This document shows, piece after piece, positions 18,571 through 60,435 of a DNA stretch of 64,000 nucleotides (position 1 is its first letter; each line of letters opens with the position of its first letter). This DNA comes from Candidatus Latescibacterota bacterium. Its GTDB lineage: Bacteria; Latescibacterota; UBA2968; UBA8231. Position numbers and translations under genes: made by a program. A model generated the notes under the pieces. It was not told the origin of the DNA and made no database searches. It was given only the letters and a program-made list of their open reading frames with translations. Where the stretch lies: contig OZ242005.1 in NCBI GenBank assembly GCA_965204725.1, positions 480,001 through 544,000 of the forward strand, read 5' to 3'.

Positions 18571-18760
18571 CGAAAAGAAAAAGTTCGATTCCATTGAGAT
18601 GATGCGCTCGATTCGCGCCAAACTTTCGGTTCAGATCGAAGGGATGACACGCGAAGAGGAGCTCAATTGGCTCGCATCGCAGGAACTCAAAGATCCATTC
18701 TTGGAACGTCTCCGCAGGAAGGCGGCCAACAAGACCGCACAAACGAGACGTGCGACGTAG
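18563..18760 (+). CDS. Small PIN-associated protein (putative antitoxin)
   Basis: 65 aa, KKFDSIEMMRSIRAKLS...GMTREE pattern recalled from small proteins downstream of PIN genes. Confidence 0.55.
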   Translation: MTNEKKKFDSIEMMRSIRAKLSVQIEGMTREEELNWLASQELKDPFLERLRRKAANKTAQTRRAT

Positions 18761-18771
18761 GCAATCTCTGA

Positions 18772-20820: not shown

Positions 20821-20851
20821 ATATTGAGGAGGATTTGAAATGGCCATACTA

Positions 20852-21695
20852 GAAGCTATCTCATAAATAGTCTGGCTGTGCTACGTTAGTGGTATTCCCT
20901 TTCGGAGGTATCTCTTATGGATCTTACAGACGAACAGTGGTCGATAGTGTCCCCACTGCTGCCGGCGTGTCCCAAACGCCGCGATGGCCGGGGTCGTCCG
21001 TGGCGTTGTAACCGAGCGGTGCTCAATGGTATTCTGTGGATTCTCCGCACCGGGGCGCCTGGGCATGACCTGCCTGCTCGCTATCCGTCCTACCAGACCT
21101 GCCATCGTCGATTCCAACAGTGGTCGTCTGATGGCACCTTTGAACATATTCTGCGCACCCTCGCGCACGACTTGCATGAGCGCGGGGGCCTTGATGTGAG
21201 CGAATGCTTCATCGATGGCCTGTTTGTCGCGGCGAAAAAAGGGGGGACCAAGTGGGTCCGACCAAGCGGGGCAAAGGTACGAAGCTCATGGCAGTGGCAG
21301 ACCGCGCTGGTCTTCCTATCGCCGTACTCATCCAAAGTGCTTCGCCGCACGAAGTCACCCTCGTAGAAGCCACCCTGGAAAACCGATGGGTCCAGCCCCG
21401 ACCGCAACGACTCATCGGGGACCGAGCCTACGACTCGGATCGATTGGATGCGAGCCTGGCCGACCAAGGCATTGAGATGATCGCGCCGCATCGCCGCAAT
21501 CGTACGCAGGCCAAAACCCAGGACGGGCGGCGGTTGCGGGGCTACAAAAGACGCTGGAAAATAGAAAGACTGTTTGCTTGGTTGCATAACTTCCGCCGCA
21601 TCGTGGTTCGATACGAATACTATGCTGAAAACTACCTCGGCTTTGTACAACTCGGATGCATCCTCATACTGCTACGGTATTTATGAGATAGCTTC
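20852..21695 (+). mobile_element. IS5-family insertion sequence (IS427-like)
   Basis: 18-bp TIRs GAAGCTATCTCATAAATA / TATTTATGAGATAGCTTC with TA at 20850-51 and 21696-97. Confidence 0.92.
20917..21686 (+). CDS. IS5/IS427 transposase (two ORFs, probable frameshift)
   Basis: [15 protein letters not shown]; second [28 protein letters not shown]; slippery AAAAAAGGGGGG at 21235-21246. Confidence 0.9.
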
Positions 21696-22685
21696 TAAAC
21701 AAAACAGATTTATTCCATTCACTGTTCGACGCTTTTCGCCAGAACACAGACTCTGTCTATTTTGTATGTGGAAACAATCCGTACCGATTCTCTTTCAAAG
21801 GCAAATTCGTTACTGTTTTCGTTGGTAACATTCACTTTGCTGGGCGCACTGATGATGAATATCGAATCCAATGCCCAGGAGGTTTGCCGGAGACACTGCG
21901 CAACAGCAAGCGAAGGGGAGATACGGTACTCATCTTAGGATTTTCTGCAAAGGTGCAGGTCTTCAATGCATGGGATCCGGATAAATTCTTGGCTCGGCAC
22001 TCGGGAGTCCAGCAGTTTTCTGTCTATACTCGATTATCACGCATGCAAGAGGCTGCCGCACAGGGCTTCTCAACTCATACCGATACAGCTAAACAAGTCG
22101 TGGTCATGTTTCGCCCCGATCTCATCGGTTTGTATTTGGAAAACTCAACAGTGCTCCACCAAGCTACTGATCAGAAGTTGCGAAGAATAGCCGAAATTTA
22201 TAGTAACATCCAATCAGGTCAACTTCCTGTGCGACCAATCATGGTTAAAAGACAGAGGATTCAGATAACTAGTACTGAGTATCCTCGAAGTCCAAAGTTT
22301 AGGCAAGAAGTGTTAGGAGCGTACTGCTACAGATGTGCAATGTGCGGGCTTCAATTAGGCCTTGTAGAAGCCGCTCATATTGTGCCACATGCTCATCCAA
22401 AGGGACTTGATATAGTGAGTAATGGCTTGGCCCTTTGCGCTCTACATCATCGGTCTTTCGACACAGGGCTACTCTATGTTCGGGACGACTATTCAATTCA
22501 TATAAACTCTAATAGGGTCAGACACTTGAGAAAGATGGGTAGGTCTGATGGACTGAAGAGTTACAAACGGAAACTCAGGCGTGAACTGTTCCTGCCCGCC
22601 GAGAGTGTTTTTCTTCCCTCACCGGAAAACCTTACTCTCGGGAATGCTCTTCGGGGAGTTGAGTTGGCCTGAGAGGTCGACCATA

Positions 22686-23288
22686 ATGCAAGACATGCAG
22701 TCGTTCCCAACTCCTACACTAGCGGTCCAACCTCTGCCCTCAAGGTTCAAGCCTCGCTTGCTGGCAATCGGTGCTCCCGAAATTCTCAACTCGGAACACA
22801 CCGCGCTCTTCTGCTCCGTCCGTTGCCCCGGCGACCTAATCCTCAAGACCTACGACTTGGCGAGGGCCATGCGCGAGGCCGGAACACCCGTGATAGGCGG
22901 CTTCCAGACGCCGATGGAGAAGGAGTGCCTGCGCCTGCTGCTGCGAGGCAACCAGCCCGTCGTGGTATGCCCCGCTCGCAGCATTGACAACATGCGGGTT
23001 CCCCGCGACTGGCGTCCGGCCATCGCCGAGCGAAGGCTGCTGATCATATCTCCTTTCCCGCCATCGCAGCACCGTCCAACAATGAAGCTGGCAGCCCAAC
23101 GAAACGACATGGTAGTTACGCTCGCTAGCCGGGTTTTCATCGCCTATGCCGCCCGTGCTGGCAAGACGGAAAAGTTAGCCCGCAAGGTCGCCGAGTCCGG
23201 CAAACCCCTCCTCACCCTCGATAGTCCCGCCAATGCGAACCTGCTGGAACTCGGAGCTCGTGTGCTTGGGGTGGATGGTCGGATCTAG
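22686..23288 (+). CDS. DprA/Smf-like (SLOG/Rossmann) protein, short form
   Basis: ALFCSVRCPG, VIGGFQTPMEKECL, LLIISPF, AAQRN, FIAYA..GKT. Confidence 0.75.
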   Translation: MQDMQSFPTPTLAVQPLPSRFKPRLLAIGAPEILNSEHTALFCSVRCPGDLILKTYDLARAMREAGTPVIGGFQTPMEKECLRLLLRGNQPVVVCPARSIDNMRVPRDWRPAIAERRLLIISPFPPSQHRPTMKLAAQRNDMVVTLASRVFIAYAARAGKTEKLARKVAESGKPLLTLDSPANANLLELGARVLGVDGRI

Positions 23289-23341: not shown

Positions 23342-24583
23342 CTAGTCGGATTTCCGAGCCGGCCCCGGCGGCCGGGCAAACGCGGCGGACCAGTCCATCC
23401 GGCCGGTAAACTGCATGGCGGCGAAGAGGGTGGCGATGCAGAGGACGGTGATGGCCAAGCCGGTATAGCCGACAAAGAAGAAGGTGTAGGAGAACAGGAC
23501 CAAGTAAATGAATTGGGCCAAGCCCACCTCCACCAAGGCCAGCCGCAGGCCGACCACCAGCCGCATGTAAGAAACCACCAGAAAAACAGACACGGCCGCA
23601 GCCACCAAAAAGGCGTAGTGGATGAGCAAGTGATCGGCTAGATAGGCCAACAGCAAGTGGAAGCTGAAAAAGGCCGCGCCGATGAAGAAGTAATTCATCG
23701 GGTGGATGTCGATGCCTTTGACCGCGGCGAAGACGAAGAGCAAAAAGAAAAAGAGAAAGAGGGAGATGGGAGCGGCCTCGGTCACGTCTTGCACCCAAGG
23801 GCCTGGGTTGAGGCGGGCGGGCATGACCATGCCGAGAGCGGCCCCGGTGAGTAGCTGGTCGTACTGCCAAGTGAGACGCCAGCCCTCGGCGGTGCGCTCC
23901 TTGTGGGTGGGCGACAGGCTTTGGCCGGGGAAGTCAATGGCGGCGAAATCCGTGAGCATGGTCAACTCGAAGTCGGAAACTTGCTCGACGTGGTCGCCGA
24001 AGCGGTACTCCCACTGTTCGAGTCCCTGCGATTGATAGGCAAGGCGGATTTGGCGGCTCTGGCCCGGCGCTAGGTGCAACGGCTGCCGCAGATGCCCTTC
24101 CGCCAGCGGCAGCGGTGCGATGGGGTGGCCGTTGAGGGACAGGGTGAAATCGTCGTACACGGCTTGGGAAGTCGGCAGGGCCAACTCGAAGGTCAGGTCG
24201 AGGGGTCGGTCGGTCTCGTTAGTCGCGGTATAGGTCGCGTCTAGGGCCACTTGGTAGGTGGGATACCACAGCAGGCCCTTGCGGCGGTGTTCGAGATGGA
24301 GATCAACCTGTAGGCGGCTGGCTTTTAGGGGCAGGAGGTGCCGCCGCTCCCTAACGTGTTCTACCGCTTGGCCATCGGGGGCCTGTTGGACGACGATTTC
24401 CTCGGTGGTCCAGTACAGGAGCGGGGCGGGTTGGGACTGAGGGGTGCCCCACAGTTGACCCACGGCCGCTTTGAGCTTGGTGTCTTGGTGGTGGGTGCGG
24501 TAGGAGACGACCTGCGCCAAGATGAGCCACGCGACGGTCGTGCAGGCAAAAATGAAGCCGATGGCGGCGATGCGGTACAGCAT
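23342..24583 (-). CDS. CreD-like inner membrane protein
   Basis: N-terminal TM, periplasmic region (LWGTPQSQ, RKGLLWY), six C-terminal TMs with HPMNYFFIG. Confidence 0.7.
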   Translation of the reverse strand: MLYRIAAIGFIFACTTVAWLILAQVVSYRTHHQDTKLKAAVGQLWGTPQSQPAPLLYWTTEEIVVQQAPDGQAVEHVRERRHLLPLKASRLQVDLHLEHRRKGLLWYPTYQVALDATYTATNETDRPLDLTFELALPTSQAVYDDFTLSLNGHPIAPLPLAEGHLRQPLHLAPGQSRQIRLAYQSQGLEQWEYRFGDHVEQVSDFELTMLTDFAAIDFPGQSLSPTHKERTAEGWRLTWQYDQLLTGAALGMVMPARLNPGPWVQDVTEAAPISLFLFFFLLFVFAAVKGIDIHPMNYFFIGAAFFSFHLLLAYLADHLLIHYAFLVAAAVSVFLVVSYMRLVVGLRLALVEVGLAQFIYLVLFSYTFFFVGYTGLAITVLCIATLFAAMQFTGRMDWSAAFARPPGPARKSD

Positions 24584-24828: not shown

Positions 24829-27800
24829 ATGATCGCGCTGAATATCGCCTTTTTGCTCGTCTTTGCCATCGGCCCGGTGGCGGCTTCGGCCGGGCCGCGA
24901 GCTGTGGTGGAGCATTTGTCTTCGCTGGGGTCGCGGGTAGCGGGCTATCCGGGGAGCGACCAAGCGGCGGCTTATGTGGAGCGGCGATTGCAGGCGTTGG
25001 GGTTGGCGACGCGACGCGACACCTTTGCGGTGGTGGTGCCGGTGGACCGGGGCGGGCGGCTGGAGTGGGAGGGTGAGTCGGCGGACCTGTACGCGGTGTG
25101 GCCGAATGGGGCGCGGACTTCGACCGTGCCGCCGGAGGGGTTGCGCACCACGGCGATTTGGGGCGGCGATGGGGATTGGGGCGATTTCAATGGGCAAGAG
25201 GTGGCTGGGCGGGTGGTGGTGCTGGACTTTGCGAGTGGCGACGCTTGGCTGAAGGCCGCGTCGTTGGGGGCGCGGGCGGTGGTGTTTGTGGGCGCGGATT
25301 CGGCTACGACTCAGCAGGGGCAAGGCAAGTATGCGCGGGTGCCGTTGGATGTGCCGCGCTTTTGGCTGGAGGGGGCCGCCGGGGAGCGGTTGCGGCGGCG
25401 GTTGGCAGGTGGCGGAGCGGTAGAGGTGGGGTTGTGGGGGCGGATGGATTGGCAGGAGCGACCGGCGTACAATGTGTGGGCGGTGGTGCCGGGGCCGGGA
25501 GCGGGGACGGTTGTCGTCCATGCGTATTACGACGCGCCGTCGGTGGTGCCGGCGCGGGCGCCGGGGGCAGAGGCCGCGGTGAGTGTGGCGACGCTGTTGG
25601 AGGTGGCCGCTCAACTGCAAGCGAACCCGCGGGCGCACACGGTGGTGCTCGCCGCGCTGAGTGCTCACTTCCAAGGGCGGCAGGGCATGGTCGCCTTCCT
25701 CGATAAGCACGCCCGCTCCCACCCGCACTATGCGGCCCGGCTCGCCGAGCCGCTGTCTATTGACCTGTTCATCGGCCTCGATTTGTCCAGCCACGGCGAG
25801 CAGGTGGTGCTGTGGAACAACACGGATAGCTACGCGCTCAAGCGGTTTTTCGTGCCCTTTGGCCGGCGCTTTGCCGAGTACGCAGCGGCCTTGGGGCGCG
25901 CCGAGGCGGTGGCCAATGGCATCAGCCCCATTCGGGGGATGGATTGGGACAGCTATATGCCCGGGGGCTTGGCCGCCGATGGGGAATTGGCACTCGCGGC
26001 CGGGTTCCCATCGCTGACGCTGGCCACGGTGGGCGACGCCCGCTTCGCGCTGGATTTGCCGCTGGACGCGAGTGCGGGGGTGGCGTGGGACCGGGTGGAG
26101 GGGCAGGCGGCGTGGGTGGCCGAGTTGCTAACGCATGCGTTGGCCGATACAGCGCTGTTGGCCGGGCGGGAGCGGCTCGCCGAGGCCCTAAAGGATCGGC
26201 TGCGGGATTTGCGCGTCAAAGCGCGGACGTTCCCCCGGCGCAGTCAGGTGCCGGACCGGCCGGTGCCCGGGGCGTTGGTCGCGGTGCAGGTGGAGCAAGA
26301 AGAGCGCAAGGGGGTGCGCGACACGCGCTACTTTCTCGCGGATGCCGCCGGGGTGGTGCGGGTGCCTGGGTTGGTACAAGGGACGTACCCGCTGGCGATA
26401 GCGGCGTTGGACGCCGAGCGCGGGGCGATTACCCACGTGGTAGATTTGAGCACCCGCGCCCAAGCGCACCACGGCAAGCCGAGGTTGGATGGCCGCTTGG
26501 CCCAGAATGTGCGTTGGCTCCACAACGAGCGGACCGCCGTGCTCTTTCCCGGGGTGGGGCGGCCCTTGTACGGCTTGGTCGAGCCGCGCTTTTTGCATGC
26601 GTTGAACGAAGTGAAGGTGCTGACGGCGGCCGGGAGCGAGCCGCGCCAGTACGGGTACGCGCTGGGGCCGAGCAGCATCGGCTCGGTGGGGGTGATCTAC
26701 GGGCCGGCCGCGGCGGCTGCGACCGACCGCGTCAAAGTGATTTTGGATGGCCAGTTTTTGTTGCTCAACAGCGAGGGCCGCCAAAGCGAGGCCGCCGCAC
26801 GGGGCCGGGGTTTTTTGCTGGCCGAGGAGGGGTTTGGGGCCGCGACCCTACAGGCGGCTCGGGATGTGTGGACCTTGGATGCGGCGCGGCTGGAGGTGCT
26901 CGAAAAGCACGGCATTGAAAACCAGCGGTTGACGCGGCTCCACGCGCAGGCGGCCGGGGCCATCGCCCAAGCGGAAGCAGCGGCCGAGCAACGACGGTGG
27001 GATGAGTACGTGGCGTGGAGCCGCAAGGCACTCGGCTTGGAGACGCGGGCTTACCCGGAGATCTTGGCGACGCTCAACGACGTCCTCAAAGGGGTCATCT
27101 TCTTTATGGTGTTGTTGGTGCCGGCGGCCTTTTTCGGCGAGCGGCTCTTGTTTGCCGCGGCCGATATTCGCCGACAACTCGCGGGCTTTGGGCTGTTGTT
27201 GCTGGCGATTTGGCTGATTTTGGCGCAGGTGCATCCGGCCTTTGAGTTGGCCGAGCCGCTGGTGGTGCTGTTGGCGTTTGCCATCATGGCCATGGCGGCC
27301 TTAGTGCTCTGCATGGTGGTGAGCCGCTTCAACCGCGTCATGGCCCAGCATCAGAGCCAGCAGACGCGGGTCCATGCCCAAGACTTGAGCCGCTTGAGCG
27401 CGAGTTACGCGGCCTTCATGCTCGGGATTTCCAACATGCGGCGGCGACCGTTGCGCACCGGCCTGACCTTGGCGACGCTGACGCTTTTGACGTTTACCCT
27501 GCTCTCTTTTACCTCGTTTGAACAGCAGATCCGCTACGCGAGTTTCCGGCTGCCTCACGCTGGGGCGTATCCTGGGATCCTCATCCGCGACCGCGGCTGG
27601 GAGCGCCTGACGCCGGAGGCCCTTGACTACGCCGAGTCTCATTTTGGCGGTCATGGCTGGCTGGGGCGACGCGGCTGGTACGCGGCCGAAGGCGGTAAGG
27701 GGGGCTGGATTGCGGTGGCCGCGGCGGGGGAGGCGGTGCGGGCCACCGGCTTGTTGGGCCTGACGCCGGCCGAGGCGCGGATCACGCGGGTGGATGAGAG

Positions 27801-30800
27801 CTTGGTGGCCGGGTCGTTTTTTGCCCGCGATGACGAGGCGAGCTGCATCCTGCCGCTGGGCATGGCCGAGGCGCTGGGCGTTGCGGTCGGGGATCGGGTT
27901 GAGGTGTTCGGGCGGGCGCTCACGGTGCGCGGGATTGCCGCCCCCGAGCGGCTGGGTGCGCTGCGCGACCTCGACGGCGAGAGCCTGATGCCGGCCGATT
28001 TTGTCCTGTCGGGCGCGGAAGTGCTCCAGCTCGGGGCCGCACGGGCGGTGGATATTGCCGGCGAGGCGGATCCGCACGCGCTGCGGCCCTTCGTCCACCT
28101 AGAGCCGCACCACGTGGTCCTCGTGCCCTATCAGACGCTGGCCGAGGCCGGGGGTAGCTTGCGCTCGGTGGCCGTGCGCTTTCCGCCGGCGACCGACGGG
28201 CAGGCGCTGGTCGAGGACTATCTGACGCGGGTGGCGGCCACCCTGTTCGTCGGCTCGCCCACAGGAGAGGTGCTGGCCCTAAGCTCGGTGGGCCTGACGA
28301 CCGTGAAGGGGCTGGGGGTGCTGGCGATCCCGACGCTGGTGGCCGCGCTCATTGTGCTCAATGCGATGATGGGGGCGGTGTACGAGCGTCTGCGCGAGAT
28401 CGGCATCTACTCCGCGGTGGGGCTGGCCCCCTTGCACATCGCGTTGCTGTTCGTGGCCGAAGCCTGCGTCTATGCGGTGCTGGGGACGACGCTGGGCTAC
28501 TTGCTCGGCCAAGGGTTGGGGCGGGTGCTGTTGGGGCTGGGGCTGTTGCAGGGCCTGACCGTGAACTACTCGTCCTTGGCGGCCATTGGGGCCGCGCTAG
28601 GGGTGATGGGGGTGGTGTTGCTATCGACGATCTATCCGGCGCGGCAGGCAGCGCGGCAGGCAGTGCCCGACGTGGTGCGGCGCTGGCGGCCAGACCCGCC
28701 GGTCGGCGACGAGTGGCGGTTTGAGTTCCCCTTCATGCTCGGCGCGGGGGAAGTGGAGGGGGTGTGCGGTTTTTTGGCCAACTACTTTGGTGCCTTTGGC
28801 CGGGCGACGCTGGGGGATTTTTACGTCGAGGATATGCAGGTTACGCAGGCCGAGGGCTATCGCCTCGCGTTTGCGCTGTGGCTGGCCCCTTTTGACTTGG
28901 GGGTGAGCCAAGAGGTGGTCGTGGAGTTCGTGCCGGCCGGGGAGCAGGCGCGGGCGATGGAGGTCAGGCTGCGCCGGCGTAGCGGCGAACACCACTATTG
29001 GCAGCGGCTCAATCTGCGGCTGGTGGAGGCCCTGCGGAAGCAGATGTTGATTTGGTACGCGCTCAGGGAGGCCGAGCGCGTCCAGCATGTGGAGTCGGCT
29101 CGGGCGCTGGCGGCCGAGCAGGCCGAGGAGGGCGGGGAGGAACAAGCGGAGGCCGCACCGTCGGCGGCCTTTACTTGGCGGGGGTTTGCGGTGGGGGCGC
29201 TGTTGGCCTTGGGCATCGGCGTAGGGGCGCCCTATGCGGTGATTATGCTGCAAGGGTCGTTCATGGCGCTCAACAGCTCGTCGCCCGGGGCGATCTTCCT
29301 GTTTTTTATCTTGGTGATCGGGGTCAATACCCTGCTGCGGGTCCTCGGCCGCAGCCTCGCCTTGGGGCGGGCCGATTTGGTGCTCATTTACGCGATGATG
29401 CTGTTGGCGTCGGCCGTGCCCACGCAGGCGTTTGTCGGCTACCTGATTCCGATCATCAGCGGGCTGTACTACTACGCGACCCCGGAAAACAACTGGGGCG
29501 AGATTTTCTTTCCGCACGTGACGCCGTGGCTGGTGCCGCAGGACCGGCAGGCGATTGTCGATTTGCACGAGGGGCTGCCGCCCGGGGCGCGCATTCCGTG
29601 GGGGGCTTGGAGCGAGCCGCTGGGCTATTGGTACGCGTTCTTTTTGGCGCTGAGCTTTATGATGCTCTGCATGAGTTCCATCCTGCATCGGCAGTGGTCG
29701 CAGCACGAGCGGTTGGCCTATCCCATGGTGCAACTGCCGCTCAAGATGGTGGAGGAGGGCCGCCCGGGGTTTAAGCTGGCCCCGTTTTTTAAGCAGCGGC
29801 TGTTGTGGATCGGCTTTGCGGTGCCGTTCATTCTGCTGTCGTTCAAGGCGCTGCACTACTACTTCCCGGCGGTGCCAACGCCGCCTCAGTCGGCCGGGCA
29901 GCTCGCGTGGATCGGCGAGGGGACGACGCTAAAATTGGACTGGGTGTACGCGTGGATTGGCTTTTTTTATTTGGTCAACCTAGACATTTCCTTTTCTATA
30001 TGGTTCTTCTACGTCCTCAACAAGGCGCAAGAGGGGATTTTCGCCTCGTTGGGCATTGCCAGCAGCGAAAAGCTCAGTCTCTATTCCTTCTCCCAGACCG
30101 CGGACCTGACCCACGAGGTGATGGGGGCCTGTCTGATTTTCGTCGGCTACACCTTGTGGATGGGGCGGCGGCACTTAGGGGCGGTGTGGCGCAAGGCGTG
30201 GCGCGGCGACCCGGCGATAGATGATTCCGGGGAAATGCTTTCCTACCGGGTGGCGGTCTTTGGTTTTTTGGCCAGCCTGCTCTTCGTGGGCGTCTGGCTG
30301 TGGGCGTCCGGGGTGCCGCTGGCGATTTTGCCGCTGTTTTTGCTGGTGTGCTTGCTATTCTACGTGTTCGTCACGCGGGCGGTGGCCACGGCCGGGCTGG
30401 CGACGGCGCGCTCGCCGATGGTGGCGGCGTTTTTCATCATTTCTGCGGTCGGCGCACCGGCGATTGGGGCCAAGGGGCTGACGGCCCTGACCTTCACGTA
30501 CGTCTGGCAGTCTGAGATGCGGCTCTTTCCGATGATTGCCGCGGCGAATTCGCTCAAGCTGGCCGAAGCGGTGGCTGGGTCCAAAAGGCGGTTGTTTTGG
30601 GGGATGGCGCTGGCGTTGGTGGTGAGTTTGGCCGGGGCGACGTGGATCATTTTACAGGTGTGCTACGAGCATGGCGGGATCAACCTGCATCCGTTCTTTA
30701 TGACCCGTCAGGCCGGGCGCACGTTTGCCGACATGGCGCGGCCGATCGTCGAGCCGTTGCCAGCCGACGGGCGCGGTTGGTTGTTTACTGGCGTCGGCGG

Positions 30801-31089
30801 CCTCCTCGAGGCCGTACTCTTGTGGGGGCACCATCGGTTTTACTGGTGGCCGTTGCACCCGTTGGGGTTTATCGTCAGCGTGGGTTGGCTGGCCGGGCAG
30901 GTGTGGTTTTCGGTGTTTATCGCGTGGGCACTCAAGCTGGGCATTGTCAAATGGGGCGGGATGCCGCTCTACGAGCGGGCCAAGCCGCTTTTTTTAGGGC
31001 TGATTTTGGGCGAGGCGACCGCGGCCGGATTGTGGTTGTGCATCGACGGGGTGCTGGGCGAGACCGGGCATTTTCTGTCGTATATGTGA
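24829..31089 (+). CDS. Giant fusion: M28-like/PA domain + FtsX/MacB permease + DUF6785/DUF6784-like polytopic transporter
   Basis: Signal peptide; SRVAGYPG, HAYYD, APGAE, GLDLS (M28 fold); RRRPLRTGLTL and YERLREIG (FtsX); acidic linker; HERLAYPMVQLP, WPLHPLG, KPLFLGLILGE (DUF6785/6784-like); no internal stop. Confidence 0.8.
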   Translation: MIALNIAFLLVFAIGPVAASAGPRAVVEHLSSLGSRVAGYPGSDQAAAYVERRLQALGLATRRDTFAVVVPVDRGGRLEWEGESADLYAVWPNGARTSTVPPEGLRTTAIWGGDGDWGDFNGQEVAGRVVVLDFASGDAWLKAASLGARAVVFVGADSATTQQGQGKYARVPLDVPRFWLEGAAGERLRRRLAGGGAVEVGLWGRMDWQERPAYNVWAVVPGPGAGTVVVHAYYDAPSVVPARAPGAEAAVSVATLLEVAAQLQANPRAHTVVLAALSAHFQGRQGMVAFLDKHARSHPHYAARLAEPLSIDLFIGLDLSSHGEQVVLWNNTDSYALKRFFVPFGRRFAEYAAALGRAEAVANGISPIRGMDWDSYMPGGLAADGELALAAGFPSLTLATVGDARFALDLPLDASAGVAWDRVEGQAAWVAELLTHALADTALLAGRERLAEALKDRLRDLRVKARTFPRRSQVPDRPVPGALVAVQVEQEERKGVRDTRYFLADAAGVVRVPGLVQGTYPLAIAALDAERGAITHVVDLSTRAQAHHGKPRLDGRLAQNVRWLHNERTAVLFPGVGRPLYGLVEPRFLHALNEVKVLTAAGSEPRQYGYALGPSSIGSVGVIYGPAAAAATDRVKVILDGQFLLLNSEGRQSEAAARGRGFLLAEEGFGAATLQAARDVWTLDAARLEVLEKHGIENQRLTRLHAQAAGAIAQAEAAAEQRRWDEYVAWSRKALGLETRAYPEILATLNDVLKGVIFFMVLLVPAAFFGERLLFAAADIRRQLAGFGLLLLAIWLILAQVHPAFELAEPLVVLLAFAIMAMAALVLCMVVSRFNRVMAQHQSQQTRVHAQDLSRLSASYAAFMLGISNMRRRPLRTGLTLATLTLLTFTLLSFTSFEQQIRYASFRLPHAGAYPGILIRDRGWERLTPEALDYAESHFGGHGWLGRRGWYAAEGGKGGWIAVAAAGEAVRATGLLGLTPAEARITRVDESLVAGSFFARDDEASCILPLGMAEALGVAVGDRVEVFGRALTVRGIAAPERLGALRDLDGESLMPADFVLSGAEVLQLGAARAVDIAGEADPHALRPFVHLEPHHVVLVPYQTLAEAGGSLRSVAVRFPPATDGQALVEDYLTRVAATLFVGSPTGEVLALSSVGLTTVKGLGVLAIPTLVAALIVLNAMMGAVYERLREIGIYSAVGLAPLHIALLFVAEACVYAVLGTTLGYLLGQGLGRVLLGLGLLQGLTVNYSSLAAIGAALGVMGVVLLSTIYPARQAARQAVPDVVRRWRPDPPVGDEWRFEFPFMLGAGEVEGVCGFLANYFGAFGRATLGDFYVEDMQVTQAEGYRLAFALWLAPFDLGVSQEVVVEFVPAGEQARAMEVRLRRRSGEHHYWQRLNLRLVEALRKQMLIWYALREAERVQHVESARALAAEQAEEGGEEQAEAAPSAAFTWRGFAVGALLALGIGVGAPYAVIMLQGSFMALNSSSPGAIFLFFILVIGVNTLLRVLGRSLALGRADLVLIYAMMLLASAVPTQAFVGYLIPIISGLYYYATPENNWGEIFFPHVTPWLVPQDRQAIVDLHEGLPPGARIPWGAWSEPLGYWYAFFLALSFMMLCMSSILHRQWSQHERLAYPMVQLPLKMVEEGRPGFKLAPFFKQRLLWIGFAVPFILLSFKALHYYFPAVPTPPQSAGQLAWIGEGTTLKLDWVYAWIGFFYLVNLDISFSIWFFYVLNKAQEGIFASLGIASSEKLSLYSFSQTADLTHEVMGACLIFVGYTLWMGRRHLGAVWRKAWRGDPAIDDSGEMLSYRVAVFGFLASLLFVGVWLWASGVPLAILPLFLLVCLLFYVFVTRAVATAGLATARSPMVAAFFIISAVGAPAIGAKGLTALTFTYVWQSEMRLFPMIAAANSLKLAEAVAGSKRRLFWGMALALVVSLAGATWIILQVCYEHGGINLHPFFMTRQAGRTFADMARPIVEPLPADGRGWLFTGVGGLLEAVLLWGHHRFYWWPLHPLGFIVSVGWLAGQVWFSVFIAWALKLGIVKWGGMPLYERAKPLFLGLILGEATAAGLWLCIDGVLGETGHFLSYM

Positions 31090-32381: not shown

Positions 32382-35213
32382 ATGTTTCGGCAGACAAAGA
32401 GCGACCTGAATCTGCATAAAGAATGCCCCAGAGGAAGTTCTCCACTTCTCTGCGATGTGGAACTTCGACAAACATTGTATTCGGTATTCTGGCGGGTTGG
32501 TCGCTCTTCTTTTGTTCTATTCGCCCTCCTGCTCTGGCCCGTAGTCCTGCGCGCCCAGCCCATCGCCACGGCCCCGAAGGCACTCGACTTGGGTGTAGTC
32601 GGCGTCGGCGTGGAGGCGCGGGCGTCCGTTTCCCTCAAAAATCTGCAAGACGACGCGCTTGAAGTGATCGTCGGCATTAGCGGTGCTGGTTTTGGCACGG
32701 CCGCGGATACGTTGCGCTTAGAAGCCGAGGGCCGCCGCCGCGTCGAAGTGCATTTCAGGGCGACCGCGCCCGGGGAATATGCGGGCGAGCTGATCGTGCA
32801 GGTGGCCTCCCTGTTTGCCGATGAGCGTCTAAGTGTGCCGCTCCAAGCAGTCGCGGTCGTGCCGACCCTAACGCTGCTGCCAGCCGAAGGACTGGATTTT
32901 GGCCCAGTGCCCGTCGGCCAAGCGGCTAGGGCGGCCCTTGTAGTCAAAAACACCGGCCTCGTGTCCGTGGTGGCCGGGCGGATGGCCGTTGCCGATCCCC
33001 AAGGCCCCTTTCGGGTTGAGGGCGACGTCGGCTCGTGGCCGGCTCCCGGCGATGAAATGCGGATTGACGTTGAGTTTGCGCCGACGCGGGCGGGGCCGGT
33101 CGCGACGGAATTCGTGGTCGTCGCGCCCGGTTCTGGGGATTGGTCCATCCCCTTGCGGGGGAGCGGTCTGGTGCCGCAAGCGGCCTTTTCGCCTCTCCCG
33201 CAAGTGGGCCTTGACTTTGGGATCGTCGAGGTGGGCCAGCGCCTAACGCGCCGCGTGACCGTCCTCAATCAGGGCCAGACCGAATTGCACCTTAAAAACG
33301 CCAGCCTTGAGGGCGCGGCGTTTGCCCTCGGAGGCGCGGACTCGGCGGCCACGCTTGCGCCCGAGGGGCGGCTCGACCTGAGCGCGGCGTTTGTGCCGCA
33401 GAGCGAAGGCGACCACAGCGGCGTCCTGCGCCTACACACCAGCGACCCGCAGGCCGCAGTGGTGGCCATCCCCCTCGCGGGTCGCGGCCAAATCAGCCCG
33501 CCGCGCATCGAGATTCTCAACGGCGGCCTAGACTTCGGCAGTGTGCCCATCGGCGAGACCGCACACGCGCATTTGCTGCTGTGGAACCGAGGAGGTCGGC
33601 CGGGCGTGGTGGAGGTTGCAATGGCCGCGGGCGAGGGCGTTGAATTTGAGCTCGAACAGCCCTCGGTCCTCGTCCAGCCTCGGGCCAGTGCCCAAGTCGC
33701 GCTGAGTTTCTCGCCCAAAGAAGCCGGGCCGCGCCAAGCTATTCTGCACGTCGAGGTTGAAGCCCAGCGCCAGACGGTGCGCTTGCAGGGCGTCGGCCAG
33801 TTTTTCGCCCTCAGTCCGGCGACCGTTGACTTCGGTCGAGTCGCGGTCGGCCAAAGCAGCAGTCGCGTCGTAGAAATAGCCAATGTGGGCAACGCCGACT
33901 TTGAGGTTCACCAGCTCCGCTCGACGAGCACTGAATTTACCGCCCATACCCCCATTGACGCGGACAACAAGTTCCTGTTGCCGGCCCACAGCCAGCGCAC
34001 CTTGCCGCTGCACGTGGCCTTCAGCCCGTCGGCCCGCGGCGCGATTTCGGGGACCTTGCGCTTAGACGGCTTGGGCGCGCAGGAGATGACGACGCTCGAC
34101 ATCCTGCTCAAGGGCAGCGGCATGGCCGCTGAAATCGATCTGCATCCGGCGGGCCTCGTTGATTTTGGCTATGTGGCCTTGGGGCAGCAGACGGAAAGGA
34201 CCTTTGTGGCGACCAACGTCGGCGATACCGTGCTGCAAGTCGAGGCGCATCCCCAAAGCGAGGAGGCCCGCGTCGCGCCAGCGCAATTCGCGTTGGCCCC
34301 GGGCGAATCCGTGCGCCTCACGCTCTTTTTCGCGCCCGATGCCTTGGGCGAGCGCCGCGGGCGCGTTTTGCTGGTCAGCAACGACGTCAAGGACCGCGCC
34401 CGGCCGCTCGAATACAAGGGGGACGGAGTGCTCGCAGACATCGACTTGGCGCGCATTGTCGAGGTCTTGATCGCGCACGGCGAGGAGCCCCAGCCCTTGG
34501 CTGTCGGCTGGAACAATACCCCGGTCGTGCAAAAAGACGGGACCAAAGTGGATGTGGCCTTTGCGATTTCCGACTCGCTGCGGCCGGCGCTCATCGGGCG
34601 CGAGCTGGTGGTCGAGTGGACCCCGCTCGACGAAAACTATGCCCCGAAAAAAGGCCGCACCCAAAAGCAGAAGGTCACCATCTACGAGTCGAGCGGCGAG
34701 CGCGTCTTGGTCGAGGACCTCAACTTGCGGCTGTCGGAAGAAGACAATCGCCGAGTGCGGCTCAAAATTACGACCCACAGCTACCCGGGTGCCCCGCCGC
34801 AGAGCGTGTCGCAGCTTTTGGAAGCCGGGGGTTGGAAGTGGGAATTTGAGGCCAAGCCGCTCGTTTCCTTTTTGACGATTCGCCCCGGGCGCGATTATAC
34901 CGACCGCGACGGCAACCCAGTCCAAGGCCAAACCGAGCGCCTGATCGGCTTGCCCGGGTTGGCCTTTGCCGGCTGGCACAACGTGGATAACCCGTTGATT
35001 TCCGGCATCCACTTCACGGCCATCGGCAATGTCCTCGAAGCCCTTTCAACCGAAAACTCGCTGGCCATTTCGCTGGGCGTGGCCGTTTCCTTTTACAAGG
35101 ATCAGTTTCTCTTTGGCTTTGGCTGGGACATTTACGACAGCCGACCCCGAGCCAAGAAGAAAGGCTCGCAGGACTACATTATGACCTTTAAGTACTCGGG
35201 GTTGTTCAAGTGA
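32382..35213 (+). CDS. Surface protein with six choice-of-anchor-D / ASH-type Ig-like repeats (true start probably near 32475)
   Basis: Six [LV]D[FL]G.V..G repeats with N.G motifs; signal peptide ending VLRA-Q; TTGACA-18-TATGTT overlaps the first ATG. Confidence 0.8.
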   Translation: MFRQTKSDLNLHKECPRGSSPLLCDVELRQTLYSVFWRVGRSSFVLFALLLWPVVLRAQPIATAPKALDLGVVGVGVEARASVSLKNLQDDALEVIVGISGAGFGTAADTLRLEAEGRRRVEVHFRATAPGEYAGELIVQVASLFADERLSVPLQAVAVVPTLTLLPAEGLDFGPVPVGQAARAALVVKNTGLVSVVAGRMAVADPQGPFRVEGDVGSWPAPGDEMRIDVEFAPTRAGPVATEFVVVAPGSGDWSIPLRGSGLVPQAAFSPLPQVGLDFGIVEVGQRLTRRVTVLNQGQTELHLKNASLEGAAFALGGADSAATLAPEGRLDLSAAFVPQSEGDHSGVLRLHTSDPQAAVVAIPLAGRGQISPPRIEILNGGLDFGSVPIGETAHAHLLLWNRGGRPGVVEVAMAAGEGVEFELEQPSVLVQPRASAQVALSFSPKEAGPRQAILHVEVEAQRQTVRLQGVGQFFALSPATVDFGRVAVGQSSSRVVEIANVGNADFEVHQLRSTSTEFTAHTPIDADNKFLLPAHSQRTLPLHVAFSPSARGAISGTLRLDGLGAQEMTTLDILLKGSGMAAEIDLHPAGLVDFGYVALGQQTERTFVATNVGDTVLQVEAHPQSEEARVAPAQFALAPGESVRLTLFFAPDALGERRGRVLLVSNDVKDRARPLEYKGDGVLADIDLARIVEVLIAHGEEPQPLAVGWNNTPVVQKDGTKVDVAFAISDSLRPALIGRELVVEWTPLDENYAPKKGRTQKQKVTIYESSGERVLVEDLNLRLSEEDNRRVRLKITTHSYPGAPPQSVSQLLEAGGWKWEFEAKPLVSFLTIRPGRDYTDRDGNPVQGQTERLIGLPGLAFAGWHNVDNPLISGIHFTAIGNVLEALSTENSLAISLGVAVSFYKDQFLFGFGWDIYDSRPRAKKKGSQDYIMTFKYSGLFK

Positions 35214-58935: not shown

Positions 58936-59637
58936 ATGTCTGAGAGGCGTTTGGCAGGCGGTCGGGAGATTGTGCTGCCGATGAGCAAAGCAGTAGAAAT
59001 TAGTTTTCGCAGCCTGAAAATTCGCTTTGGCCGCTCCCTGATCACCACCAGCGGCGTGGTGTTGGCGATTGCTTTTTTAATGTCCGTGTGGAGCAACAAC
59101 GAAATCGTCAGCAGCCTGCGCAGCGCAGACAAAAGCGAGATCAACTTACTCTTGCAAAAAAACGGCATTGAGACGGGCATCACCGAGGCCGGCGATGCTT
59201 CTGAGGAGGCTATGGGCCGCCTAGAGGAAGAGCGGTCTAAGCAGACTTGGCTGATCAGTCTGTCGCTCTTGGTCTGCGTCGTCGGCATTGCCAACGCCAT
59301 GTTGATGTCGGTGACCGAGCGGTTCCGCGAGATCGGCACCATGAAGTGCCTCGGGGCCTTAGACACCTTTATCGTCAAGCTCTTCCTCCTCGAATCGACC
59401 TTTCAGGGGCTGGCGGGGACTTCGGCCGGGGTCGTCATTGGCTTCGCGCTGACGCTCGGCTTGGCGCTGCTCGATTACGGCGGCTACACACTCGCCTATT
59501 TCCCGCTCGGCGGCATCGTCGAATCGGCCGGTTACGCCTTGGTGGTAGGGACCCTGCTTTCGTTGATCGGTGCCATGTTGCCGGCGTACCGCGCGGCCAA
59601 GATGGAGCCGGTCGAAGCCATGCGCTCCGACACTTGA
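58936..59637 (+). CDS. Small FtsX-like ABC permease
   Basis: RFGRSLIT TM, short loop, MSVTERFREIGTMKCLGA, PAYRAAKMEPVEAMR. Confidence 0.88.
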   Translation: MSERRLAGGREIVLPMSKAVEISFRSLKIRFGRSLITTSGVVLAIAFLMSVWSNNEIVSSLRSADKSEINLLLQKNGIETGITEAGDASEEAMGRLEEERSKQTWLISLSLLVCVVGIANAMLMSVTERFREIGTMKCLGALDTFIVKLFLLESTFQGLAGTSAGVVIGFALTLGLALLDYGGYTLAYFPLGGIVESAGYALVVGTLLSLIGAMLPAYRAAKMEPVEAMRSDT

Positions 59638-59658
59638 TTCCTCCAGAGGAGATTTGCA

Positions 59659-60435
59659 ATGACCGCAACCGCCCCGGGCGAGGTCGCCATTCAAGAACAA
59701 GAAGCGGAAAAACGCACCGTAGTACGGACCCAGCAGGTAAAGAAAATTTACTTGATGGGCGAGATTGAGGTTCACGCTCTGCGCGGAGTAGATATGGAGA
59801 TCTACACCGGCGAGTACCTGTCGATCATGGGGCCTTCGGGCTCGGGCAAGAGCACCTTCTTCAACATGGTCGGCGGCCTCGACAAACCCTCGGAGGGCAA
59901 GGTGTACATCGACGAGGTGGACGTCGCCCAGCTCGACGCTTACGAGCTGGCTTGGCTGCGCTGCCGCAAGATCGGCTACATCTTCCAGTCGTTCAACTTA
60001 ATCCCGGTGATGACCGCGCTCGAAAACGTCACCTTGCCGATGGTCTTTGCCGGCCTGACCAGCGACGAAGCCCGCGACAAGGGCATGGAGCTTTTGGTCA
60101 AGGTGGGTCTTGGCGAGCGGTACTCGCACAAGCCCTACGAGTTGTCGGGCGGCCAGCAGCAGCGCGTGGCCGTCGCCCGCGCCTTGGCCAACGACCCGGC
60201 CGTCGTCCTCGCTGACGAGCCGACGGCCAACCTCGACTTGCGCACCGGCACGGAGATTATCGAGCTGTTGCGCGAGATGAACCAAGACTCCGGCGTGACG
60301 GTCATCTCCGCGACCCACGACCACAAGATGCTCAGCGTCTCCGACCGCGTGGTGTGGGTCAAGGATGGCCAAGTTGATCACGTGCGCAAACGCGAAGACC
60401 TCGACATCGAAGTAACCCACGTAGAAGGCGAGTAG
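59659..60435 (+). CDS. LolD/MacB-type ABC ATPase
   Basis: GPSGSGKS, IGYIFQSFNL, LSGGQQQRVA, LADEPTANLD, ATHD. Confidence 0.93.
   Translation: MTATAPGEVAIQEQEAEKRTVVRTQQVKKIYLMGEIEVHALRGVDMEIYTGEYLSIMGPSGSGKSTFFNMVGGLDKPSEGKVYIDEVDVAQLDAYELAWLRCRKIGYIFQSFNLIPVMTALENVTLPMVFAGLTSDEARDKGMELLVKVGLGERYSHKPYELSGGQQQRVAVARALANDPAVVLADEPTANLDLRTGTEIIELLREMNQDSGVTVISATHDHKMLSVSDRVVWVKDGQVDHVRKREDLDIEVTHVEGE

Follow-up and report, generated by a model that had tools for sequence, protein, structure and literature searches.

A giant M28-like/FtsX protein fused to a predicted OPT-fold permease in a Latescibacterota genome

Closest described systems

The permeases of type VII ABC systems (MacB, LolCDE, FtsEX, HrtBA, YtrEF, YbbAP and BceAB) share one plan, in which a periplasmic core domain stands between TM1 and TM2–4, and their cognate ABC ATPase is usually fused or encoded adjacently. 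The characterised MacB-type systems (MacAB, LolCDE and FtsEX) either drive substrates outward by pushing or extraction or work on the envelope itself, and a motif between TM2 and TM3 of these proteins docks the ATPase. Nicastrin and nicalin, which have M28-like domains without canonical catalytic residues, are outer subunits of polytopic membrane complexes. Among PA-domain M28 aminopeptidases are those of Aneurinibacillus (2ek8) and Bacillus subtilis (YwaD, 6hc6). The OPT/Yellow-Stripe-like family (PF03169, TC 2.A.67), known for taking up peptides or metal chelates with protons, includes barley HvYS1 (PDB 7wsr/7wst), which PMC9691689 describes as a proton-coupled, elevator-type importer.

The window analysed here is a stretch of 64,000 nucleotides, and it encodes a giant protein (Table 1) with likenesses to each of these. 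The type VII order of TM1, periplasmic core and TM2–4 is the same, but an M28-like head of 724 residues and three extra TM helices precede this unit and a helix-grip-like cytoplasmic domain follows it, no ATPase gene is adjacent, and the gene invariably accompanies, or is fused to, genes of OPT-fold permeases. The C-terminal module resembles the OPT family in fold throughout, but Pfam places it in separate families without known function, and it is fused to an FtsX protein. The head can be aligned with the M28 aminopeptidases from the N-terminal helix through the PA insert into the start of the catalytic domain, but the canonical His ligand and Glu-Glu pair are replaced and a giant membrane protein anchors the domain. 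The eukaryotic nicastrin and nicalin have other partners (gamma-secretase; an ER translocon complex), and the similarity to them is weak. In the literature we found no description of these families or of their combination, and no pairing of the type VII ABC class with OPT-fold permeases, which agrees with the suggestion of an earlier note on this DNA that the architecture may be undescribed.

With high confidence, the frame encodes, fused to one of its own partners, the giant subunit of an envelope system that is conserved but unstudied. Very probably this subunit consists of a periplasmic head, three linking TM helices and one FtsX module with a small cytoplasmic domain, and in all likelihood the unfused giant protein is always encoded beside one or two OPT-fold permeases (DUF6785/6784 upstream, the family F11 downstream). 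The natural fusion indicates physical cooperation among the parts of this system, which is widespread.

Table 1. Features of the giant reading frame and of other genes in the window
Feature	Position	Strand	Remarks
Whole reading frame	24829..31089	+	2086 aa + stop; giant M28-like/FtsX protein fused to predicted OPT-fold permease
N-terminal hydrophobic segment (residues 1-21)	24829..24891	+	candidate signal peptide or membrane anchor; hydropathy peak 2.33
PA-domain + M28-like region (residues 23-334)	24895..25830	+	remodelled metal site Y-x-D, E, H-F, D
Remaining outside domain (residues 335-751)	25831..27081	+	conserved across family
Three extra TM helices (residues 752-830)	27082..27318	+	hydropathy; predicted structure
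MacB/LolC-type FtsX module (residues 871-1277)	27439..28659	+	TM1, periplasmic core domain, TM2-4
Cytoplasmic alpha/beta domain (residues 1293-1412)	28705..29064	+	helix-grip-like; pLDDT about 90
Acidic linker joining the two halves (residues 1413-1446)	29065..29166	+	
Predicted OPT-fold permease module (residues 1447-2086)	29167..31086	+	Pfam DUF6785 + DUF6784
CreD-like inner-membrane protein gene	23342..24583	-	divergent; Pfam CreD 63.7 bits
Small FtsX permease without outer domain	58936..59637	+	4 TM, about 50-residue loop; candidate second membrane subunit
MacB/LolD-type ABC ATPase beside small FtsX	59659..60435	+	Pfam ABC_tran 112 bits; candidate motor ATPase

The fused reading frame and its modules

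The earlier note had described one uninterrupted frame of several modules, and the Pfam map contains each module that it named: Peptidase_M28 at residues 215-336 (20.8 bits, just below the cut-off of 21.3), MacB_PCD at 968-1057 (27.2 bits against a cut-off of 27), FtsX at 1166-1277 (49.9 bits), DUF6785 at 1449-1949 (423.4 bits) and DUF6784 at 1984-2079 (93.2 bits). The motifs are also where it had put them, with RRRPLRTGLTL starting at residue 871 (nt 27439; given as ~27440), YERLREIG at residue 1185 (nt 28381), the acidic linker at about 29065-29166 (given as ~29060-29165), and WPLHPLG and KPLFLGLILGE close to the C-terminus. On a Kyte-Doolittle scan the topology is self-consistent and runs from the N-terminal hydrophobic segment (1-21) through an outside domain (28-751), three TM helices (752-830), FtsX TM1 (879-897), a second outside domain (898-1148), TM2-4 (1162-1268) and a cytoplasmic stretch (1269-1446) to a last module with many TM helices.

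The giant fused frame is real and not an assembly artefact, as judged from four observations. Fused full-length homologues of 2086-2161 aa are found at identities down to 49%; same-genus genomes have open frames of 2094-2148 aa in 15 of 24 cases, plus one truncated by a contig end; the FtsX and DUF6785 parts share one frame without an intervening stop in 21 of 80 related genome loci; and at the linker, where read coverage had been suggested as a check, positions 29060-29200 are spanned without inserted or deleted letters by contigs from 4 runs of 4 studies, one of which may be the source of the window. In the fused homologues 30 to 55 residues separate the aligned FtsX part from the aligned DUF6785 part.

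A family profile of residues 23-334 matches the solved structures 2ek8_A (E 1.4e-13), YwaD 6hc6_A (2.4e-12) and nicalin 7tm3 (5.5e-7), with nicastrin at E 0.07 (4uis_A, E 0.13, with a single-sequence query). In hhalign the head aligns with a true M28 peptidase of the same genome over 279 columns (probability 96.3%), and Pfam Peptidase_M28 scores 27.5-36.9 bits in four of the five paralogues of the giant protein. By these profile comparisons we consider residues 23-334 homologous to PA-domain M28 aminopeptidases. The proposed PA-like insert is present, the alignment to the PA-bearing 2ek8 and 6hc6 running through it (positions 6-277); Pfam PA itself has no match in the 2086-aa protein and scores 21.9 bits, against a cut-off of 23.9, in the homologue from metagenome locus L177.

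The M28 positions, which we take to be the co-catalytic metal ligands His, Asp, Glu, Asp and His plus a catalytic Glu, were located through two true M28 proteins of the same genome; the column of the last ligand His is unreliable in the alignment. Among 27 aligned family sequences the canonical set of ligands and catalytic Glu is not retained: the first His is replaced by Tyr in 25, the bridging Asp by Glu in 26, and the catalytic Glu-Glu pair by His-[F/H/C] in all 27. The replacement residues Y234, D235, E248, H280 and D318 are invariant or nearly so. Of the description of the head as a pseudo-M28 peptidase, the homology and the loss of canonical catalytic residues therefore stand, but because the altered metal site is strictly conserved, "remodelled" fits it better than "dead". 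The likeness to nicastrin and nicalin probably reflects parallel loss of catalysis. Within residues 335-751 the sole Pfam match is a weak one to CarboxypepD_reg (476-535, E 0.048).

The three extra TM helices occupy model positions 2-101 (pLDDT about 80-90), and in the topology above they return the chain to the cytoplasm ahead of the FtsX module. For that module, Pfam, Foldseek and VIA-align agree with the TM cluster, MacB-like periplasmic region and FtsX permease reported earlier. Foldseek matches its model to MacB 5gko_A (E 4.8e-13) and LolCDE, both at probability 1.00, and also to HrtB; VIA-align gives Z 12.8-14.7 to MacB, YtrF, FtsX and LolC, and for the periplasmic domain Z 14.0 to 3ftj_A (rmsd 4.0, 178 residues). 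The type VII plan of a four-helix FtsX domain, with the periplasmic core domain between TM1 and TM2, is followed, and the giant protein falls below the NCBIfam equivalog cut-offs for lolCE (27.5 vs 362) and MacB (24.8 vs 966). Between TM2 and TM3 lies the motif YERLREIGIYSAVG, in which E, R, I and G are unchanged in 97 of 97 sequences. The cytoplasmic domain (1293-1412) has no Pfam match and only middling VIA-align similarity (Z 7-8.4) to SRPBCC/Aha1-C/KA1-type domains; its predicted fold is helix-grip-like, and it is not an ATPase.

The C-terminal module bears out the suggested similarity to OPT transporters. Its AF2 model (pLDDT 95.5, pTM 0.95) matches HvYS1 in Foldseek (7wst_A, E 5.6e-8, TM 0.63/0.69) and in VIA-align (7wsr_A, Z 24.5, rmsd 4.0, 551 of 600 residues; runner-up Z 5.0), so that the DUF6785 + DUF6784 part is predicted to have the fold of barley Yellow Stripe 1, of the OPT family. 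Sequence identity is only 10-13%, and Pfam OPT (PF03169) has no match in the 2086-aa protein at E values up to 1. DUF6785 (PF20581) and DUF6784 (PF20580) are matched in one chain here, and DUF6784 is likewise present in each of the 13 further DUF6785 proteins scanned. F11 has 12 or more TM helices, aligns with DUF6785 in hhalign (probability 93.8%, E 1.7e-7) and matches Pfam OPT positions 528-622 at its C-terminus (95 model positions, 25.8 bits); on these profile matches we regard it as a distant OPT-like paralogue of DUF6785.

Gene neighbourhoods and origin of the fusion

The survey of split and fused homologues that the earlier note had called for covered 80 loci. An OPT-fold gene lies within 1 kb and on the same strand in 49 of 49 unfused loci with both flanks visible; DUF6785 is upstream in 37 of 49, while downstream 43 of 56 have F11 and 3 of 56 a separate DUF6785 gene. 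At fused loci neither separate partner (DUF6785 upstream, F11 downstream) is present. This genome has six giant paralogues and 33 DUF6785 paralogues, and all five unfused giant genes are within 5 kb of a DUF6785 gene. DUF6785/6784 proteins had been described as usually separate genes, and fused forms do account for just 2 of the best 150 DUF6785 representatives. Stand-alone DUF6785 genes are often found beside secreted-protein and SurA-like genes.

In a tree of the FtsX part there is one fused group (26 fused rows and one 1832-aa protein, support 96), and the fused proteins also form one group in the tree of the DUF6785 part (support 100); fused forms at the 80 loci include some only 55-67% identical in that part. 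The trees point to a single ancient event that joined a DUF6785 module to the C-terminus of the giant protein in this lineage. The fusion is a derived form of a conserved gene set. The claim that it is a Rosetta-stone clue is upheld by the adjacency of the partners at every one of the 49 unfused loci; the caveat is that the fusion reverses the usual gene order and that its DUF6785 lineage differs from that of the usual operon partner.

Candidate motor and possible mechanism

We give even chances to the explanation as a whole, comprising gene system, mechanism and cargo. By analogy with HvYS1, an elevator-type protein coupled to protons, the OPT-fold module would form the conduit through the inner membrane, above which the M28-like head and MacB periplasmic domain may capture or handle substrate, and the FtsX module would pass on force from an ABC motor encoded elsewhere. 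This motor would be the single-copy pair of small FtsX and ATPase (58936-60435), perhaps with the orphan ATPase of this genome (C1:560299-561117), and one motor would serve all six giant paralogues. As cargo we tentatively favour an imported peptide or other oligomer, direction and cargo being the least secure steps; we know of no characterised MacB-type system that imports, which counts against uptake.

FtsX/MacB domains had been called ATP-driven mechanotransducers. Membership of the FtsX/MacB family holds, and ATP drive is a property of that family, with no ATPase gene near the frame: in this genome none of the six giant genes has an ABC ATPase gene within 20 kb, and only 3 of 80 related loci have any ABC match within 9 kb (31-41% identity). 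The small FtsX is single-copy in 138 of 151 genomes of the phylum. Both it and the giant protein occur in 138 of these, neither in 11, the small FtsX alone in none, and the giant protein alone in two (84% and 89% complete); the 11 double absences all belong to one family, so the co-occurrence amounts to about one independent event. At all 35 metagenome loci that are at least 9 kb long, the ATPase gene lies directly downstream of the small FtsX. Two of these 35 (L177 and L178, near-identical and hence one lineage) carry on one strand the genes for DUF6785, the giant protein, F11, a 294-aa protein, a PqqD-like protein (Pfam PqqD 42.9 bits in L177), the small FtsX and an ATPase. The 294-aa and PqqD-like genes directly follow F11 in this genome (C1:5188774-5190100) and directly precede the small FtsX on other metagenome contigs. 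Since the pair shares the distribution of the giant protein and clusters with it in two metagenome contigs, it is likely the shared motor. The small FtsX, its ATPase and the orphan ATPase are all under every NCBIfam equivalog cut-off, and by those models the small-FtsX ATPase is not FtsE or LolD.

An orphan ATPase adjoins the module in L025 and L028, but matching loci L021, L023 and L026 are without it, so a rearrangement may have produced the adjacency. When residues 745-1446 were modelled together with the orphan ATPase introduced above, the predicted complex scored 0.46 against 0.00 for the best control, with at least 44% of contacts in common between runs and a partner pLDDT of at least 74. 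Of 157 solved complexes 116 score at least this much, as do 2 of 215 mismatches; between this score and 0.60 there are just 18 of the 157 and both mismatches. The model thus lends weak support to ATPase docking, and because MacB, LolCDE and FtsEX complexes have been solved, it may be recall of a known likeness.

A PqqD-like peptide-binding protein is also compatible with export of a ribosomal peptide. The system might instead be an export or processing machine, in which the PqqD-like protein binds such a peptide in the cytoplasm, the OPT-fold proteins send it outward, and the MacB-type module and M28-like head handle, trim or expel it in the periplasm, much as peptides are expelled by MacAB-TolC. 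This is unlikely, although outward action is what MacB-type systems are known for, the site of the former peptidase has been kept rather than lost to decay, and the PqqD-like gene belongs to the full L177 cluster and follows F11 here. Among the proteins scanned at the loci we recognised no precursor-peptide gene, tailoring enzyme, membrane-fusion gene or outer-membrane channel gene, and six giant and 33 DUF6785 paralogues in one genome resemble a nutrient-uptake expansion more. Moreover, HvYS1, the only solved OPT-fold protein, is a proton-driven importer (PMC9691689).

We consider it rather doubtful, and somewhat less probable than export, that no ATPase takes part, the FtsX module being a passive scaffold or taking its movement from the OPT-fold module, whose proton-driven elevator motion would act on the periplasmic head, making a mechanotransducer driven by proton-motive force. 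The scarcity of ATPase genes (near none of the six copies here; distant ABC matches at no more than 3 of 80 loci), the conserved helix-grip-like domain after TM4 and the covalent joining of FtsX and OPT-fold modules in a whole clade all favour it. They are opposed by the TM2-TM3 motif, unchanged in 97 sequences, by the co-occurrence of the small FtsX-ATPase pair and its clustering with the giant protein in L177 and L178, and, weakly, by the predicted complex with the orphan ATPase.

An FtsEX-type envelope-remodelling regulator is improbable. Here the FtsX module would serve as an on-off switch for either the M28-like head or a bound hydrolase, cell-wall or surface polymers would be cut, and the OPT-fold partners would only recycle products. 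FtsEX-EnvC and other FtsEX structures are among the best structural matches (8hd0_C, Z 14.1; 8tzj_C, Z 13.0), M28 enzymes are peptidases, and the neighbours of stand-alone DUF6785 genes would suit such a role; against this, the catalytic Glu is swapped in every one of the 27 sequences, the scanned loci yielded no gene for a cell-wall hydrolase or an EnvC-like protein, the scores of both ATPases and of the small FtsX stay under the FtsX and FtsE model cut-offs, and four to thirteen copies per genome are unlike a division system. The idea that two adjoining genes were wrongly merged at the acidic linker, prompted only by its low complexity, is refuted by the fused frames and indel-free contigs described above, and nothing was found in its favour.

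The divergent CreD-like gene is upstream of the giant frame in 15 of 17 close fused loci and in 0 of 4 more distant ones, and is thus a neighbour in close relatives only.

The fused gene and its three modules

The gene is read as one uninterrupted frame, and its Pfam map agrees exactly with the order given in the earlier note, M28-like, then MacB/FtsX, then DUF6785/DUF6784. A hydropathy scan showed that the topology of the predicted protein closes. An Rfam search of the whole 64-kb window gave 0 matches, and a promoter and terminator scan yielded nothing useful.

Features of the fused protein and of associated loci (window coordinates unless residues, a contig or a locus are named; G000 is the genome of the window and C1 its contig; TM, transmembrane helix)
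Feature	Location	Remarks
Fused gene	24829-31089 (+)	single open frame, 2086 codons
Peptidase_M28	residues 215-336	Pfam 20.8 bits, cut-off 21.3
MacB_PCD	residues 968-1057	Pfam 27.2 bits, cut-off 27
FtsX	residues 1166-1277	Pfam 49.9 bits
DUF6785	residues 1449-1949	Pfam 423 bits
DUF6784	residues 1984-2079	Pfam 93 bits
N-terminal hydrophobic segment, then 724-residue outside domain		hydropathy
Three TM helices taking the chain back to the cytoplasm, ahead of FtsX TM1		hydropathy
FtsX TM1, then 251-residue outside domain, then TM2-4		hydropathy
178-residue cytoplasmic stretch ending in the acidic linker, then many helices of the last module		hydropathy
Two IS4/IS5-type transposase genes (DUF4096 + DDE_Tnp_1)	18750-21686	second split into two ORFs
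MTaX1 + HNH endonuclease gene and DprA-like (DNA_processg_A) gene	21884-23288	between transposases and CreD-like gene
943-aa protein	32382-35213	two genes downstream of fused ORF
Small FtsX	58936-59637	four TM helices, ~50-residue loop; 28 kb from fused gene
MacB/LolD-type ATPase	59659-60435	after small FtsX
Orphan ATPase	C1:560299-561117	between uvrB and polyprenyl synthase gene
Stand-alone DUF6785 paralogue	C1:4816876-4818831	52% identical to fused module
Single 294-aa and PqqD-like genes	C1:5188774-5190100	directly after F11 of sixth giant locus
Fic and PIN-domain genes	L010 9432-11139 (G000 C1:911432-913139)	inserted between giant gene and DUF6785 partner
Four tandem paralogues, 276-299 aa	L013 11509-15033 (G000 C1:5177509-5181033)	after giant gene of sixth locus
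Giant paralogue with in-frame stops (example)	G022:C1:6172879-6177222	
ATPase frame open through small FtsX region	L054 340-1806 (G030)	489 aa
Small FtsX called separately in L054	L054 340-1038 (G030)	232-aa ORF

The fusion is real, and four lines of evidence concur. Protein searches recovered full-length fused homologues of 2086-2161 aa at identities from 99% to 49%; an orthologue occupies an open frame of 2094-2148 aa (86-90% identity) in 15 of 24 same-genus genomes, with one further orthologue truncated at a contig end; and the FtsX and DUF6785 parts share one stop-free frame at 21 of 80 loci surveyed in species-representative genomes (mostly MAGs named Candidatus Latescibacterota, some Gemmatimonadota and three Armatimonadota). 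Across the linker (29060-29200), where the earlier note proposed a check of coverage, the contigs of four public runs, each from a different study, show substitutions but no indels; one run is identical to the window and perhaps its source. Together these exclude an assembly artefact or a frameshift at the linker. In run X3 no single contig spans the linker, and its two pieces overlap by only three bases (29093-29095).

A profile of 27 family members places the head among the PA-domain M28 aminopeptidases of the PDB (2ek8_A, E 1.4e-13; YwaD, 6hc6_A, E 2.4e-12), and the alignments run on through the PA insert, in line with the M28 fold and PA-like insert first noticed in the sequence. Nicalin (5.5e-7) and nicastrin (0.07) are weaker matches of the same profile, and hhalign against a true M28 peptidase of this genome gives a probability of 96.3%. 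The profile search was required: solved structures searched with the one head sequence yielded nicastrin alone, at E 0.13. Whereas active M28 enzymes carry the canonical His, bridging Asp and Glu-Glu pair, the giant family has Tyr for the His of H-x-D in 25 of the 27 head sequences, Glu for the bridging Asp in 26, and His-[Phe/His/Cys] for the Glu-Glu pair in all 27. Because the substitute residues are themselves invariant or nearly so, the former peptidase site is remodelled rather than decayed.

The AF2 model of residues 745-1446 (pLDDT 83.9) resembles MacB, LolC/E, HrtB, YtrF, YbbP and FtsX (Foldseek probability 1.00, best E 4.8e-13; VIA-align Z 12.8-14.7 to MacB-type and FtsX structures), which places the region among MacB-type proteins, as had been proposed from its MacB-like periplasmic part and FtsX permease. 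The motif YERxREIG...G between TM2 and TM3 is invariant in 97 sequences; in MacB-type proteins it is the docking site of the ATPase. The cytoplasmic alpha/beta domain after TM4, well predicted, is not an ATPase; its structural matches are middling and of helix-grip type (Z 7-8.4).

The model of residues 1430-2086 (pLDDT 95.5, pTM 0.95) matches barley Yellow Stripe 1 (HvYS1) and no other fold, both by Foldseek (E 5.6e-8, TM 0.63/0.69; every other match at TM 0.18 or below) and by VIA-align (Z 24.5, rmsd 4.0, 551 of 600 residues; next chain Z 5.0). The OPT-transporter similarity suggested for the C-terminal part is thereby recovered, and DUF6785 and DUF6784 jointly make up a single permease of OPT fold. 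According to PMC9691689, HvYS1 is an importer that is coupled to protons and works by an elevator-type mechanism. Leads from a protein atlas for the DUF6785 module ('peptide transporter', OPT) scored 0.77-0.79, under the trust level. The real ORF contains three modules: an M28/PA-like head with a remodelled site, a MacB-type FtsX module and an OPT-fold permease.

A conserved gene set and the origin of the fusion

The 5.4-Mb genome contains 33 DUF6785 genes, of which this one alone is fused, and six giant genes encoding a large M28-like head with an FtsX module; all five unfused giants lie within 5 kb of a DUF6785 gene. A third recurring family, here named F11, comprises proteins of 660-1094 aa with at least 12 TM helices. 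It is distantly paralogous to DUF6785 (hhalign 93.8%, E 1.7e-7), and its C-terminus scores 25.8 bits, level with the cut-off, against the final part of Pfam OPT. Among 19 unfused loci of 12 relatives the commonest order is DUF6785, giant gene, F11, with DUF6785 upstream on the same strand at 17 (within 1 kb at 15, at 2.8-4 kb at two) and F11 downstream at 10.

The 80-locus survey, which overlaps in part with the genomes of this set, includes 59 unfused loci. At every one of the 49 with both flanks visible an OPT-fold gene lies within 1 kb on the same strand, which strengthens the suggestion that the fusion is a Rosetta-stone clue. DUF6785 is upstream of the unfused giant at 37/49 loci, F11 downstream at 43/56 and a separate DUF6785 downstream at 3/56; fused loci have a separate DUF6785 or F11 partner in 0 of 21 cases. 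The giant and DUF6785 family is large and heavily expanded in these uncultured bacteria: the DUF6785 module search returned 5192 cluster representatives at E ≤0.001, and 585 of the 589 pattern matches listed in the genome collection, hence at least 585, encode relatives of the giant protein.

Fused proteins form one group both in a FastTree phylogeny of the FtsX part (support 96; 27 rows, being 26 fused proteins and one of 1832 aa) and in the tree of the DUF6785 part (support 100). The tree places a stand-alone paralogue as sister to the fused DUF6785 module; none of the operon-partner DUF6785s, which are 32-43% identical to the fused module, has this position. Given these single groups and the stand-alone, non-operon sister, the fusion was one old event in which the giant gene gained a DUF6785 of another lineage downstream, in the usual position of F11. 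The fusion has since spread by descent, plus duplication, and is a single-origin variant of a conserved gene set whose proteins are always neighbours. Three loci with a separate downstream DUF6785 (L095, L097 and L107) were considered as pre-fusion intermediates, which is unsupported, their DUF6785 being just 34-35% identical to the fused module. Contigs nearly equal in size encode three of the fused proteins (P0029, P0030 and P0031), two with the same longest-contig figure.

Stand-alone DUF6785 copies (e.g., L014-L019) often adjoin large secreted proteins with CHU_C or FlgD-Ig tails (15/33 loci); SurA-like double-PPIase, FG-GAP/ASPIC and TPR proteins are other recurrent neighbours, and these neighbourhoods resemble substrate-specific uptake loci. 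A Fic gene and a PIN-domain gene interrupt one giant locus of this genome. At the sixth locus the tandem paralogues, which have no Pfam match, are followed ~5-9 kb further on by F11, 294-aa and PqqD-like genes. In at least 15 genomes the match to one giant paralogue group contains one or two TAA/TAG stops in frame; the match may overrun the gene ends, or this could be a conserved break or recoding site.

Candidate motor genes and proposed mode of action

None of the six giant genes has an ABC_tran match within 20 kb, and an ABC match within 9 kb occurs at only 3 of the 80 related loci, all at 31-41% identity. The window does encode a small FtsX and an adjoining ATPase, neither of which reached a cut-off when scored against FtsEX and LolCDE models. 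At 35/35 metagenome loci of at least 9 kb the ATPase directly follows the small FtsX relative, and two of these, L177 and L178 (near-identical to each other), hold the complete set on one strand: DUF6785, a TPR protein, a 1533-aa PA/M28-FtsX giant, F11, a 294-aa protein, a PqqD-like protein, the small FtsX, a 98-aa ORF and the ATPase. The 294-aa and PqqD-like genes also directly precede the small FtsX in other metagenome contigs. Across 151 genomes of the phylum, giant and small FtsX are both present in 138, the giant without the small FtsX in two (84% and 89% complete), the small FtsX without the giant in none, and 11 genomes, all of one family, yielded neither. Each genome with the small FtsX has one copy of it, and the giant protein has 4-13 copies. 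In L054 the ATPase frame stays open upstream through the small FtsX region.

The orphan ATPase falls in the same well-supported clade as the ATPase of the window, on a long branch. Complex prediction of residues 745-1446 with this protein scored 0.46, versus 0.00 for the best control, with at least 44% of contacts in common between runs and a partner pLDDT of at least 74. A score of 0.46 is reached by 116/157 solved complexes and 2/215 mismatches; only 18/157 solved complexes, and both mismatches, reach it without exceeding 0.60. The predicted pairing is thus weakly supported, and since like complexes are solved the score may reflect family likeness only. An orphan ATPase beside the module in L025 and L028 was not adopted as an operon member, because it is absent from the matching L021, L023 and L026 and is separated from the module by ~600-bp gaps.

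We propose that head, FtsX module and OPT-fold permease would form one complex, in which the OPT-fold part would be the conduit, the head and the MacB periplasmic domain would handle the substrate, and a shared motor encoded in trans, for which the small FtsX and its neighbouring ATPase are the candidate pair, would power the FtsX part. Uptake of peptides or other oligomers is favoured, as suggested by the HvYS1 analogy and the large paralogue expansion; cargo and direction are the least secure elements. Export is a live alternative, as all MacB-type systems known to us act outward and the gene set has a PqqD-like component. Were uptake of nutrients correct, it would explain how these uncultured bacteria feed and would be the first import-linked role for type VII ABC systems.

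Both MacB-type ABC systems and OPT transporters belong to familiar classes. We regard as tentative, and rather doubtful, the broader idea of a hybrid class that would combine a type VII ABC mechanotransducer with a secondary transporter of OPT fold and elevator type in one machine. A single ABC motor (the small FtsX and ATPases) would be shared by many exchangeable cargo modules, each made up of one giant M28-like FtsX protein and its OPT-fold permeases. In its boldest form, proton-driven motion of the OPT-fold module, not ATP, would move the FtsX stalk. Such a class would be an inner-membrane counterpart of polysaccharide-utilisation loci, expanded in this uncultured Latescibacterota to 6 giant and 33 OPT-fold genes.

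Full-text literature searches, which covered few subscription journals, returned no paper naming DUF6785, DUF6784, PF20581 or PF20580, and among the matches listed none reported a MacB-type ABC system and an OPT transporter acting together or an FtsX, M28 and OPT combination; a search on Latescibacterota, sponge, peptidase and transporter together found nothing related. The parts belong to known superfamilies, and the combination appears undescribed. The natural fusion is strong genomic evidence that MacB-type and OPT-fold proteins touch, and, because both halves are in one chain, it offers a natural construct for structural work.

Surroundings in the window and environmental occurrence

The transposase stretch has a G+C content of 0.45-0.53, well under the 0.62-0.70 of the fused-gene region, and the endonuclease and DprA-like genes beside it may mark the border of a mobile or defence island. 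The 943-aa protein, with at least five HYDIN/ASH/Cep192-type Ig-like domains, had no counterpart close to the fused gene at those related loci that were checked. DNA near-identical to window 28200-30000 occurs in five metatranscriptome runs in small shares only (4-9% of sampled words), in runs labelled marine metagenome at 32-44%, and in runs labelled sponge metagenome at 61-100%.
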